64,000 bases of DNA from an uncultured Gammaproteobacteria bacterium (GTDB taxonomy: Bacteria; Patescibacteriota; Microgenomatia; Levybacterales; GWA1-39-11). The stretch spans positions 23,230 through 87,229 of the forward strand of contig CAZAJO010000002.1 of the NCBI GenBank assembly GCA_964485575.1, given 5' to 3'. The notes beneath the pieces were generated by a model that did not search any database, was not told the DNA's origin, and was given only the letters and a program-made list of their open reading frames with translations. Each line of letters starts with the position of its first letter. The stretch's first letter is position 1. Shown here piece by piece: positions 8,850-21,860 of this stretch. The position numbers and the translations under genes were made by a program.

Positions 8850-8921
8850 TGATCCGGCAGAGATTCGAACTCTGAACCCAAAGCTTAAAAGGCTTTTGCT
8901 CTACCATTGAGCTACCGGACC
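8850..8921 (-). tRNA. tRNA-Lys (anticodon TTT)
   Basis: Reverse complement: GGTCCGGTAGCTCAATGGTAGAGCAAAAGCCTTTTAAGCTTTGGGTTCAGAGTTCGAATCTCTGCCGGATCA. The acceptor stem is 7 bp with one G-U. The anticodon stem AAAGC/GCTTT carries loop CTTTTAA. The T-arm GGTTCAGAGTTCGAATC is present. Confidence 0.75.
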
Positions 8922-8963
8922 AATTTTCAATTTGTCTGGGAGTTCAATGGCGAACGAAGTGTC

Positions 8964-8980
8964 TCATTGAGCTACCGGAC
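8964..8980. repeat. 17-nt direct repeat of the tRNA-Lys 5' end (acceptor + D-arm), 43 bp upstream of the tRNA
   Basis: cattgagctaccggacc at 8964-8980 is identical to 8905-8921, which is inside the tRNA. Confidence 0.7.
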
Positions 8981-9186
8981 CGAATGTACTCATGAGGGTC
9001 GGCCAAGGATGAGCTTGCTCAGACTTACCGGACTCTCAATAGCAAGGTTCGACACTGAAAAGCGTAGCTTTGTCATGCCGAACCGCACTATAAACGGTTC
9101 AACATCAGCTTTGTTCCACATAACTTCAATTGAACCGACCCTAATTTTACCAAATTTACCCTCATATAAGCAAATGGCCCGTCAAT

Positions 9187-9215
9187 TTGACAAAAACTGC
9201 AACATTTACCATACT
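9187..9215 (+). promoter_or_regulatory. putative sigma70-like promoter for the 9239 membrane-protein gene
   Basis: TTGACA (9187-9192), a 17-nt spacer, then CATACT. An SD-like AAGGGGAAGGAGGTG lies 6 nt before the ATG at 9239. Confidence 0.4.
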
Positions 9216-9238
9216 GGTAAGGGGAAGGAGGTGAGAAA

Positions 9239-9895
9239 ATGGACAGTGTAAACAACGTTTTGATAAGCACTTTAAATGGAAGTGTATCTACTATCTTCTC
9301 TTTTATTCCACGCTTCTTGTCCGGTTTTATAATTCTTCTGATTGGAATAATAATCGCTACTTTTTTAAGGCAACTTGTCCAAGAAGTTCTCAAATTCGTC
9401 AAATTTGAAGCATTTCTGAAAAAGTACGGCGTACCTGAATCAAAAGAGAATGCTCAGTGGAGTGTCATCATTGCTGAGATCGTCAGATGGTTTGTCATCA
9501 TCGTCTTTCTAGTACCGACAGCTGATGTTTGGGGACTTGGAAAATTTGTTGATGTTCTCAACAATCTACTTCTTTTCCTTCCAAACGTATTCATAGCAGT
9601 ATTGCTGCTTTTGGTTGGATTTGTCGTCTCAAAATTGGTGTATGACCTATTGATGGCTTCCGTTCGTGGACTTTCAAGAGATAGTGCAAGAACGATTGCG
9701 ATGGTAGGAAGATGGTCAGTACTCATCTTTGTGTTCTTAGTTGTGCTCAATCAACTAGGAATTGCAAGTGATCTCATACGGATTCTCTTTTCGGGCATAG
9801 TGGCAATGTTAGCTCTTGCTGGCGGTCTTGCTTTTGGTCTTGGAGGAAAGGAAGCAGCGAAGGACATCATAGACAAACTTCGTAAAAAGATCTAG
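9239..9895 (+). CDS. polytopic membrane protein (conserved TM-helix repeats, MscS-associated type)
   Basis: 218 aa with 5-6 hydrophobic helices. The repeated motif LLxFLPNVFIAVLLLLVGFVVSK resembles the conserved TM-helix repeat family. Confidence 0.4.
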   Translation: MDSVNNVLISTLNGSVSTIFSFIPRFLSGFIILLIGIIIATFLRQLVQEVLKFVKFEAFLKKYGVPESKENAQWSVIIAEIVRWFVIIVFLVPTADVWGLGKFVDVLNNLLLFLPNVFIAVLLLLVGFVVSKLVYDLLMASVRGLSRDSARTIAMVGRWSVLIFVFLVVLNQLGIASDLIRILFSGIVAMLALAGGLAFGLGGKEAAKDIIDKLRKKI

Positions 9896-9949: not shown

Positions 9950-10021
9950 GGCCCGTTCTTCTATCGGTTAGGAAACAGGGTTTTCATCCCTGTAGGGTGG
10001 GTTCGACTCCCACACGGGTCA
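9950..10021 (+). tRNA. tRNA-Glu (anticodon TTC)
   Basis: GGCCCGTTCTTCTATCGGTTAGGAAACAGGGTTTTCATCCCTGTAGGGTGGGTTCGACTCCCACACGGGTCA. The anticodon stem CAGGG/CCCTG carries loop TTTTCAT. The T-loop is GGTTCGACTCC. A TATAAT lies at 9922-9927. Confidence 0.75.
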
Positions 10022-20395: not shown

Positions 20396-20713
20396 CTATG
20401 TCTCGATGTGTTTTATGGCTTTTAGCTTGTCACGCATCCTTGAATGCTTTTCGAAAGAACTGATAATGTCTTTGTGCCGTGAAAGAAGAGTCTCTCCATT
20501 GTTACTATTTGTAGGCTCTGAGAGAATAGTTCTAGTGTGATCTTGTCTTCCGGACCTGAAAAGAAGAACGACACCCATAACTAAAAGAATAAGAGCGATA
20601 ACAACTGAGATGACGGATAAATGTACTGGATCAGCCAGATTTATGTACAACAAGTAAAAACCAAAAATGGCAATTGTAAAGCTTAGGATGGTCTCAGAAA
20701 CCCTTCTTCTCAT
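20396..20713 (-). CDS. small membrane protein, paralog B (2 TM + charged tail)
   Basis: 105 aa. The C-terminal motif HSRMRDKLKAIKH parallels paralog A. Its stop abuts tRNA-Gly. Confidence 0.4.
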   Translation of the reverse strand: MRRRVSETILSFTIAIFGFYLLYINLADPVHLSVISVVIALILLVMGVVLLFRSGRQDHTRTILSEPTNSNNGETLLSRHKDIISSFEKHSRMRDKLKAIKHIET

Positions 20714-20714
20714 G

Positions 20715-20785
20715 AGCGGGGTACCAGAATCGAACTGGCTTCTCTACCTTGGGAAGGTAGCATACTACCGGTATACTAACCCCGC
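20715..20785 (-). tRNA. tRNA-Gly (anticodon CCC)
   Basis: Reverse complement: GCGGGGTTAGTATACCGGTAGTATGCTACCTTCCCAAGGTAGAGAAGCCAGTTCGATTCTGGTACCCCGCT. The acceptor stem GCGGGGT/ACCCCGC is perfect. The anticodon loop is TTCCCAA. Confidence 0.75.
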
Positions 20786-20819
20786 TTGTGCAAAAGTTTG
20801 TATAGCGGCAAGCTTTGGC

Positions 20820-20839
20820 TTACCGGTATACTAACCCCG
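20820..20839. repeat. 20-nt direct repeat of the tRNA-Gly 5' end, 34 bp upstream of the tRNA
   Basis: taccggtatactaaccccgc at 20820-20839 is identical to 20766-20785, which is inside the tRNA. It is flanked by inverted CTTGTG/CACAAG. Confidence 0.7.
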
Positions 20840-20919
20840 CGAACACAAGATATAGTATATCAAATAGCTTTTTGTAACTACTCTCGAAGAGAGCAACGTT
20901 CTTGCTGGAAGCAAGGTTG

Positions 20920-21546: not shown

Positions 21547-21616
21547 ACTATTACTCCTCTCTGGGCAAGAATGTGGCAGTGGACAGCGGGCATTGTGGCA
21601 GTGGCAGGTACTTTTG

Positions 21617-21690
21617 CGGGGTGAACGGGACTCAAACCCGCGACCTCTTCCGTGACAGGGAAGCGCTCTAATCAACTGAGCTACCACCCC
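21617..21690 (-). tRNA. tRNA-Asp (anticodon GTC)
   Basis: Reverse complement: GGGGTGGTAGCTCAGTTGATTAGAGCGCTTCCCTGTCACGGAAGAGGTCGCGGGTTTGAGTCCCGTTCACCCCG. The anticodon loop is CTGTCAC. Confidence 0.75.
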
Positions 21691-21860
21691 AAGAGTTGCA
21701 CTCTTGGGGTGGAGGAAGGATCTAAAAGATCCTGACTACCACCCTTGGGTGGCCCTTCCGAACTACCCTGAGACTAACAACTTCTGGTTCAGTTATTCTA
21801 CCATCCTCCTCACCGTCCAGTCAATAGCCTCAAAATCATTTTGTATGATATTATATTTTT

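Follow-up and report, generated by a model that had tools for sequence, protein, structure and literature searches.

The tRNA-Gly gene and its partial copy

A partial copy of a tRNA-Gly gene, located directly upstream of the gene itself, was analysed in a 64,000-nt stretch of DNA (hereafter the window) from contig CAZAJO010000002.1 of assembly GCA_964485575.1 (positions 23,230 to 87,229 of the forward strand), which belongs to a Levyibacteriota genome of the candidate phyla radiation (CPR). Four tRNA genes, for Gly, Lys, Asp and Glu, were found in the window by ARAGORN and Rfam. The tRNA-Gly gene, with anticodon CCC, is located on the minus strand at 20715-20785 (lower boundary 20714/20715), matches Rfam family RF00005 with 56.6 bits and forms a cloverleaf in its minimum free energy (MFE) fold; it is intact but does not encode the terminal CCA. 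Its nucleotides 1-20 (GCGGGGTTAGTATACCGGTA; 20766-20785, minus strand) run from the 5′ strand of the acceptor stem to the GGTA of the D-loop. A perfect direct copy of them (20/20), here called the stump, lies at 20821-20840 on the same strand and was recovered by the repeat search (repeat D1) as well as by BLAST (1-20 at 100%), as the original prediction from the sequence had placed it. The stump starts at the position matching mature +1, and since the bases immediately 5′ of the stump and of the gene differ, the duplication begins exactly there. The two copies have a start-to-start period of 55 nt and are separated by a spacer of 35 nt (20786-20820), and not 34 as first stated. Weak similarity extends upstream of both copies, giving 51 nt with 73% overall.

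The stump is directly followed by the hairpin apex AGCCAAAGCT (20811-20820, minus strand), as seen in the predicted fold, and then by TGCCGCTATACAAACTTTTGC (20790-20810, minus strand), which folding and antisense alignment identified as a degenerate inverted copy of the stump that pairs with it through several G:U pairs. Further out, CUUGUG (20844-20849, minus strand) forms the 5′ arm of an outer stem with CACAAG (20785-20790), the last G of which is nucleotide 1 of the tRNA. The order on the minus strand is TGATATACT, atatCTTGTGttc, the stump (GCGGGGTTAGTATACCGGTA), AGCCAAAGCT, TGCCGCTATACAAACTTTTGC, ACAA, and the 5′ end of the gene (GCGGGGTTAGTATACCGGTA), continuing with GTATGC into the rest of tRNA-Gly. 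We also considered whether the spacer derives from the 3′ end, since decayed, of an earlier tRNA copy in tandem. Its alignment with the sense tRNA was no better than that of shuffled sequences (p 0.94 and 0.55), whereas alignment with the antisense of the leader and stump was better than shuffles (p~0.04), and the segment is therefore taken to be an inverted copy.

The element TGATATACT (20854-20862, minus strand), located 13 nt upstream of the stump, reads as an extended -10-like element, and resembles TGATATAAT, which precedes tRNA-Gly or its stump in four related loci (L016, L021, L029 and L079). It is the probable promoter of the whole transcript of stump, inverted copy and tRNA, to judge from its sequence. 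A simple sigma-70 scan returned no site on the tRNA-Gly strand. A promoter or terminator within the spacer was also considered and rejected, as the consensus scan gave none on the tRNA strand.

Predicted folding of the leader and the precursor

The leader alone is predicted to fold into one long hairpin in which the stump is paired with the inverted copy (-24.9 kcal/mol, z -3.9, with none of 200 shuffles as good). Its outer 5 bp, UGUGU/GCACA, derive from the CTTGTG/CACAAG hexamers. These hexamers had been proposed to close a hairpin around the pseudo-5′ half; they are indeed present and paired as the outer stem, but the main partner of the stump is the inverted copy in the spacer, which had been overlooked. 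In the whole 149-nt precursor the leader hairpin stands beside a normal cloverleaf (-54.3 kcal/mol).

Pairing of the repeat with the 3′ strand of the tRNA, which had been suggested as a subject for folding in silico, proved to be a close alternative: with the stump forced into the acceptor stem in place of the true 5′ strand, the precursor reached -53.1 kcal/mol. As this fold costs merely 1.2 kcal/mol, the stump is a genuine competitor for the 3′ strand. In the precursor of the closest relative (L001) and in that of the window tRNA-Lys, the MFE fold itself puts the stump into the acceptor stem. Trapping of the true 5′ strand of tRNA-Gly by the inverted copy was rejected, because with the stump blocked the cloverleaf still forms. 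Rfam analysis of the window returned tRNAs only; no known RNA family or ribozyme, and no group I intron core, was found in the leader.

Near-isoenergetic folds of this kind speak for a functional leader, in which the stump, the inverted copy and the 5′ strand of the tRNA form a three-part switch that times or checks tRNA folding and 5′ processing. Such a switch would alternate between pairing of segments 1:2 and 2:3, or between 1:2 and pairing of segment 1 with the 3′ strand of the tRNA, in a layout like that of an attenuator. The inverted copy, however, has decayed and fails to capture the 5′ strand of the tRNA even with the stump blocked, and the leader matches no Rfam family. Together with the data from relatives given below, this makes a designed switch an unlikely explanation.

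A motif GTAAG...CTTGCC was repeatedly observed to form the outer stem in hairpins beginning at the GGTA of a Gly, Lys or Asp stump, always with the same T.G wobble (window 20807-20823; L001:8030-8059, 9028-9059 and 9093-9149; L004:9329-9383 and 9420-9435; L009:9044-9060; L014:14006-14021). In most instances the motif ends 20-25 nt short of tRNA +1, and 12 of the 60 matches are located within 200 nt upstream of a tRNA. The motif was considered as a promoter element and rejected, the constant distance of 20-25 nt to +1 being accounted for by hairpin symmetry.

Related leaders at tRNA-Lys and tRNA-Asp

The resemblance to tRNA-Lys claimed in the original prediction holds, and extends to tRNA-Asp within the clade. 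The gene for tRNA-Lys(UUU) (8850-8921, minus strand; ARAGORN and Rfam) is preceded by a perfect 17-nt copy of its nucleotides 1-17 (8965-8981, minus strand; repeat search and BLAST) and by an inverted copy of 4 leader nucleotides plus tRNA nucleotides 1-18 (8929-8950, minus strand; 22 nt, 82% complementary, with a 3-nt loop). A 20-nt stump with an inverted copy was also found at tRNA-Lys of L014 (13989-14040), with a stable predicted hairpin between the two (z -3.8). The leader of the window tRNA-Lys contains ~180 extra bases. The orthologues in L003, L007 and L009 have no perfect stump and carry a degenerate stump-like hairpin, GGGTCGGTTCAAATG...TTGAGCCGA.

At tRNA-Asp (21617-21690, minus strand) the leader forms a perfect 13-bp palindrome with a 3-nt loop (21684-21712, minus strand), the 3′ arm of which consists of 6 leader nucleotides and tRNA nucleotides 1-7. 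Further upstream in the leader, GGGTGGTAGTCAG (21732-21744, minus strand) repeats the 5′ end of tRNA-Asp in short, degenerate form and pairs with CCACCC(C) downstream of it. Perfect palindromes of 12-15 bp were found at tRNA-Asp of L001-L005 and L009, with a 3′ arm made of the last 6-8 leader bases and tRNA nucleotides 1-7, or only 1-4 or 1-5 in L002 and L009. The palindrome is perfect in the window, L001, L002, L003, L004 and L005 although their leader sequences differ, so that within this close clade it is conserved across orthologous loci with compensatory changes. The predicted MFE fold of pre-tRNA-Asp retains the palindrome in place of the acceptor stem. Related leaders at tRNA-Lys, in L014 as well as in the window, and at tRNA-Asp, where the palindrome persists in differing leaders and is preferred over the acceptor stem, argue for a functional leader. 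The repeat search found no such repeat or inverted copy at tRNA-Glu of the window. An 11-nt direct repeat (TGTGGCAGTGG, plus strand; 21572-21582 and 21594-21604, spaced 22 nt) was also observed, between tRNA-Asp and the likely start of the LysM-protein gene.

Distribution of the stump in related genomes

Species-representative genomes were scanned with the neighbouring CTP synthase, which gave 80 syntenic loci, and 58 orthologous tRNA-Gly(CCC) loci were defined among them by the conserved order tRNA-Asp, LysM protein, tRNA-Gly, CTP synthase. Those relatives with informative names are Candidatus Levyibacteriota, Microgenomates or Patescibacteria. A perfect 20-nt stump of the same type as the gene was found close upstream at only three of the 58 tRNA-Gly loci: the window, its closest relative L001 (CTP synthase 93% identical), and L004, which has another tRNA-Gly sequence type and two stumps, arranged as near-tandem units that each comprise leader and 20 nt. 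An assembly artefact is unlikely, as homologous arrangements are present in the independently assembled L001 and L004. Conservation in related genomes, on which the original prediction depended, is therefore confined to these two; no same-type stump was found in the close relatives L002, L003, L005 and L006, or at 55 of the 58 loci overall. Since it is absent from so many orthologous loci, close relatives included, tRNA-Gly does not need the stump, which speaks against its being a device of general use in processing or quality control. A lineage-specific feature had been proposed; the leaders are restricted to a clade, as proposed, but with a same-type stump at three loci they are no lineage-wide processing signal.

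Comparison of the window with L001 gave evidence in both directions. The two spacers are homologous, and L001 has ~40 extra nt, forming two small hairpins, inserted exactly at the junction of stump and apex, after GGTA and ahead of the 35-nt sequence common to both, with the stem retained. Position 13 of the tRNA is T in both stump and gene of the window and C in both of L001; stump and gene thus evolve in concert. In the leader stem, two G:U pairs have become G:C and one change is uncompensated, T13C not being matched in the inverted copy. The leader structure at tRNA-Gly is thus not conserved with compensatory changes across orthologues. For a functional leader, a stump that is perfect in three genomes while the neighbouring bases have decayed and a stem that survives a 40-nt insertion at its apex are favourable, whereas the absence of the stump from 55 of 58 loci and the uncompensated T13C are not.

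Among the 124 tRNAs in the same loci that had enough upstream sequence, five have 12 nt or more of their 5′ end repeated exactly within 150 nt upstream, versus 14 of 20,000 random anchors; for perfect palindromes of 9 bp or more across +1 the counts were 5/124 and 9/20,000. A chance origin of the 20-mer copy is negligible. All tRNAs with such copies or palindromes belong to the closest clade of the window or to L014. The stump and palindrome leaders are real, clade-restricted and dispensable to the tRNAs.

The arrangement might also be the product of a simple error in replication or repair, without any mobile element, arising either by fold-back copying and template switching, which would leave the initial ~20-30 bases of a highly transcribed gene in three copies (direct, inverted, direct), or by a 55-bp tandem duplication, with neutral drift since. 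Fold-back triplications such as tandem inversion duplications and duplication-triplication/inversion-duplication (DUP-TRP/INV-DUP) structures give the direct-inverted-direct order seen here; the palindrome extends into the 5′ flank of the stump itself (CTTGTG/CACAAG), the two units share the weak 51-nt similarity noted above, and L004 has near-perfect tandem units. Such an error, however, leaves unexplained that three of the four window tRNAs, and the same loci in relatives, are affected, and that the stump is perfect while the inverted copy decays. It is also silent on the heterotypic stumps, 3′ remnants and nuclease cassettes found at this locus in relatives, and we regard it as improbable on its own.

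Rearrangement at the tRNA-Gly locus in relatives

The resident tRNA-Gly(CCC) was found to alternate among at least three distinct sequence types, A, B and C, starting GCGGGGTTAGTAYACCGG, GCGGGNGTAGTTCAGYGG and GCAGATGTAGTGTAG, in the loci L001-L010, whose CTP synthase is about 84-93% identical to that of the window and whose tRNA-Gly is mostly located ~700-1000 nt upstream of it. As the type switches among close relatives, gene replacement at this fixed locus must be frequent. Stumps of a type other than the resident tRNA-Gly were found upstream of the gene in L003, L005, L008, L009, L026, L047 and L060, 3′ remnants downstream of it in L008, L011, L013, L035, L058 and L077, and traces of hairpin ends in L009, L030 and L047. 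Small hairpins with the apex AAGC-loop-GCTT often interrupt the stumps. In L003 and L005 a heterotypic stump carries a double hairpin in its D-loop and is followed directly by the intact tRNA, with no open reading frame (ORF) between them. BLAST found no tRNA-Gly 3′ fragment between the window tRNA-Gly and CTP synthase, so that the window lacks the displaced 3′ remnant.

Nested arrangements were also found. In L008 (9611-9759) the intact tRNA-Gly lies between 9-nt inverted repeats (TCCCGTTAA and TTAACGGGA) inside an older tRNA-Gly, of which nucleotides 1-20 and 34-64 remain, and a stump of a third type is located at 9525-9541. L047 and L063 each have a tRNA-Asp lodged within an older one, the 5′ part of which (1-27 plus more) precedes it and the 3′ part (35-77) follows.

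GIY-YIG nuclease cassettes

Several syntenic loci carry a more complete arrangement. In L079 (2062-2494) the promoter-like element TGATATAAT is followed by a perfect stump of nucleotides 1-34, two hairpins, a ribosome-binding site, an ORF of ~86 aa and the intact tRNA-Gly. L035 (8982-9434) has the stump, again a perfect 34 nt, with hairpins and ORF as in L079; L042 (~8970-9475) has a degenerate version, and L011 (7560-7953) has the same layout at tRNA-Asp. The ORF encodes a GIY-YIG catalytic domain (Pfam PF01541, E 8e-14) without a DNA-binding domain, and its similarity to endonucleases of group I introns is weak. No variation was seen in the alignment at the Tyr, Tyr-x-Gly, Arg, His and Glu positions. 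In the tRNA-Gly cassettes the stop codon of the ORF is a TAG at nucleotides 8-10 of the downstream tRNA, and in the metagenome loci described next the stop is often found there as well.

A metagenome scan with three of the cassette nuclease proteins as query returned more than 465 relatives, of which the best 80 (L081-L160), mostly from groundwater and sediment samples, were examined. In 74 of the 80, the distance from the end of the nuclease ORF to the start of a tRNA is -6 to +46 nt, and three of the remaining six loci run off their contig. The downstream tRNA is tRNA-Gly in 72 of the 74 (CCC in 47, UCC in 17 and GCC in 8) and tRNA-Arg (UCT) in the other two. One locus (L148:176-1202) contains tandem cassettes: a stump, a GIY-YIG gene (312-572) and tRNA-Pro(GGG), followed by a stump, a GIY-YIG gene (870-1142) and tRNA-Gly(UCC).

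Upstream of the nuclease ORF a tRNA-Gly stump starting at +1 was nearly always found. It is perfect (34/34) in nine loci, and many others have diverged or belong to another tRNA-Gly sequence type. The stump contains a double hairpin of ~60 nt, TCCGCC...GGCGGA followed by CCCGCC...GGCGGG, after which it resumes for 6-9 nt. The double hairpin is located at 35/36 in most loci, at 17/18 in L084, L092, L093, L146 and L157, and at 12-14 in L108, L123 and L145. Rfam analysis of six cassette loci (E<=1) returned tRNAs only, with no known RNA family in the hairpins.

In 25 of 68 loci the 250 nt that follow the intact tRNA contain a tRNA-like match, three of these matches being neighbouring tRNA genes; in 19 of the 25 the old 3′ part is directly preceded by the ~60-nt hairpin sequence (partially in L095). 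In L081, L088, L103, L119, L140 and others, the displaced tRNA-Gly 3′ part lies 0-130 nt past the intact tRNA, with a second hairpin at 35/36. In L088 an 80-nt segment (tRNA nucleotides ~29-35, hairpins and nucleotides 36-40) forms a perfect direct repeat on either side of nuclease and tRNA. From this arrangement the cassette unit looks like old nucleotides 1-35, hairpins and 36-41; the nuclease; the new tRNA; and old nucleotides ~29-35, hairpins and 36-72. The cassette may act as a homing element, as is hinted at indirectly by its occurrence in some syntenic loci but not in others and by the heterotypic stumps.

Heterotypic stumps, 3′ remnants and nuclease cassettes, all at the same locus, point to the stump being a rearrangement scar rather than a designed signal, and debris of other tRNA types is likewise difficult to reconcile with a functional leader.

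Neighbouring genes

Direct partial tRNA copies that end at a tRNA gene boundary are a classic footprint of integrase-type elements, and the repeat could in principle be an attachment-site duplication left by a phage or island inserted in the tRNA gene. However, the duplicated part is the 5′ end of the tRNA (nucleotides 1-20) and not the usual 3′ end, the copies are 35 nt apart with no kilobase-scale element between them, and there is no integrase or transposase within ~7 kb on either side, Pfam analysis of 15 neighbouring ORFs returning only housekeeping, LysM or membrane proteins. No integrase-bearing element bounded by the same 20-nt repeat was seen among the 58 syntenic loci either, and an origin of this kind is very improbable.

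Immediately downstream of tRNA-Gly, a predicted membrane protein of 105 aa is encoded at 20396-20713 on the minus strand. Its ATG is located 2 nt past the discriminator base of the tRNA, which leaves no space for a ribosome-binding site, and the same layout of tRNA-Gly and ORF was found in L001 and L005. The arrangement suggests a tRNA-mRNA co-transcript, in which 3′ processing of the tRNA would leave a nearly leaderless mRNA. None of the four tRNA genes of the window (8850-8921, 9950-10021, 20715-20785 and 21617-21690) encodes a 3′ CCA.

Origin of the repeat

We favour, with a probability of about 0.55, the reading that the 20-nt repeat is a nuclease-less scar of a tRNA-targeted rearrangement, which is co-transcribed with the gene and held in a hairpin. 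The stump would represent bases 1-20 of a tRNA-Gly copy, either a former or a duplicated one, left behind what is likely the ancestral promoter, with the working gene 35 nt further on. The order of direct copy, inverted copy and gene would be a scar left where DNA was broken and repaired at tRNA genes, events that appear frequent in this lineage, and the breaks or recombination would be linked to the nuclease cassettes. The complete form in relatives would be a small selfish cassette, comprising a hairpin-interrupted stump, the ~86-aa GIY-YIG gene and an intact replacement tRNA, often with the displaced old 3′ part. Repair would leave the old 5′ part behind the old promoter and the new or duplicated gene downstream; the inverted copies may come from fold-back synthesis, or may have been kept because they neutralise the stump.

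Transcription would start from the element upstream of the stump, which would then be part of a leader of ~60 nt. Pairing of the stump with the inverted copy would form first and prevent competition between stump and true 5′ strand for the 3′ acceptor strand, and RNase P would remove the whole leader at the true +1. The stump may be kept identical by gene conversion from the gene or by selection, the inverted copy being free to decay; under selection, a stump with mutations would pair more weakly with the inverted copy, which would then be free to pair elsewhere. What the data show is the repeat, its hairpin, the patchy distribution, the cassettes and remnants of relatives and the alternative fold of nearly equal energy; we infer that the window copy descends from a cassette, that the stump is transcribed, that gene conversion occurs and that the nuclease is active.

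The window shares with the cassettes a 5′ stump of the same tRNA that starts at +1 upstream of an intact gene, with a promoter-like element (TGATATACT in the window) upstream of it. At the break point of the stump the window has a single hairpin, with the stump as one arm, and the homologous L001 has two small hairpins at that junction; their likeness in sequence to the GC-rich cassette hairpins is minimal. L001, L003 and L005, with a double hairpin but no ORF, look like intermediate forms. The decreasing content from cassettes with the ORF, through ORF-less stumps with hairpins, to the window may be read as erosion, the series being ordered by content and not by phylogeny, and the window would have lost the double hairpin present in L001. 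At the junction itself, GGTA|AGCCAAAGCT of the window resembles TTCC|TCAGCCAAAAGCT of L079, where the first hairpin starts in the same relative place; this likeness covers ~10 nt only and is no proof.

Several points weigh against the scar reading. The brevity of the spacer's likeness to the cassette end is one of them. Further, tblastn found no GIY-YIG gene of the cassette family in the 64-kb window and the spacer has only 35 nt, so that the window is at most an ORF-less derivative of a cassette. None was seen in L001 or L004 either; as all three loci with the stump are without the nuclease, cassette descent is drawn from homologous loci rather than shown. The hairpins may also be different things, since one arm of the window hairpin is the stump itself, which is not so for the GC-rich double hairpins in cassettes. 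That the stump is perfect and the inverted copy next to it decayed could just as well reflect selection for function, and the tRNA-Asp palindromes, perfect in six genomes with differing leaders, look like conserved structure rather than debris. Finally, the scar reading leaves without explanation how the intact tRNA of a cassette escapes its own nuclease.

A bolder form of the scar reading is possible, though we hold it only tentatively: that the CPR harbour undescribed selfish tRNA-replacement cassettes, in which a mini GIY-YIG nuclease, a replacement tRNA and hairpins split the resident tRNA (Gly, Asp, Arg or Pro) and leave 5′ and 3′ debris. The stump and hairpin of the window would then be an eroded footprint, nuclease-stimulated conversion would keep stumps identical, and a cassette would be hard to lose because it carries the sole intact copy of that tRNA. 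In a more extreme version, the ~60-nt double hairpins at 35/36, 17/18 and 12-14 may be removable, intron-like inserts.

A small repeat has thus led to a very common association of nuclease and tRNA in groundwater CPR metagenomes, which, from its gene arrangement, looks like a mobile element replacing essential tRNA genes. If so, it would be a new route for a homing-type nuclease into an essential RNA gene without an intron, and would account for the switching of tRNA-Gly types among close relatives. For annotation, stumps and leader palindromes may pass for extra or split tRNA genes and confuse tRNA counts in CPR genomes. A stump is also a built-in competitor of the acceptor stem, and its tolerance by locking in a hairpin bears on pre-tRNA folding.

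Comparison with known systems

Partial tRNA copies beside tRNA genes are a known kind of footprint. Like the tRNA duplications at integrase attachment sites, the window has a direct repeat of part of a tRNA that ends at the gene boundary, with the intact tRNA kept; it differs in the 5′ part being duplicated, in the 35-nt spacer, in having no integrase and in the inverted copy between the repeats. With transcription attenuators it shares three consecutive segments, the middle one of which can pair with either neighbour at nearly equal energy; the tRNA-Gly leader, however, is without a terminator, leader peptide or ligand-sensing element, and its third segment is the tRNA itself. Tandem inversion duplications and inverted triplications have the same order of copies and a short loop at the inversion junction. 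Those formed by fold-back repair are usually kilobase-scale, whereas the unit here is 20-30 nt and recurs at several tRNA genes.

In atp6 of Allomyces mitochondria, Paquin, Lang and co-workers reportedly described a mobile GIY-YIG ORF that brings a replacement piece of the host gene and is accompanied by double-hairpin elements. By that description, the CPR cassettes resemble it in the GIY-YIG ORF with a replacement piece, the displaced remnant of the resident gene and the double hairpins at the borders; it differs in that a protein-coding mitochondrial gene is affected and its 3′ part replaced. No description of a cassette of stump, double hairpin, mini-nuclease and tRNA in the CPR, or of a leader with stump and inverted copy, was found in the full-text literature searched, the coverage of which was incomplete. 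The cassette family may, as it appears, be undescribed, a negative in the literature being no proof of novelty.

Group I introns occur at 35/36 of tRNA-Asn and tRNA-Asp of Patescibacteria (PMC13011429), that is, in the same phylum-level group and at the same anticodon-loop site as the double hairpin in most cassette stumps; the text of that paper contains no mention of 'GIY-YIG', 'tRNAGly' or 'duplicat'. The double hairpin, at ~60 nt, is far too small for a group I ribozyme and has no Rfam match.

Free-standing GIY-YIG nucleases beside tRNA genes are known in T4-like phages. SegB, a free-standing GIY-YIG homing endonuclease of the tRNA gene cluster of phages T4 and T6, makes cuts within tRNA genes and brings about tandem duplication of the tRNA-segB unit through microhomology that the tRNA's 5′ end shares with segB's 3′ end (PMC13096335). 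As in the CPR cassettes, its gene directly adjoins tRNA genes. SegB is larger and phage-encoded, whereas the CPR protein of ~86 aa consists of the catalytic domain only. The CPR nuclease genes lie in cellular genomes, between a stump and a tRNA and with double hairpins, and none is present in the window. SegB may be regarded, by analogy, as a precedent for nuclease-driven rearrangement of tRNA genes.

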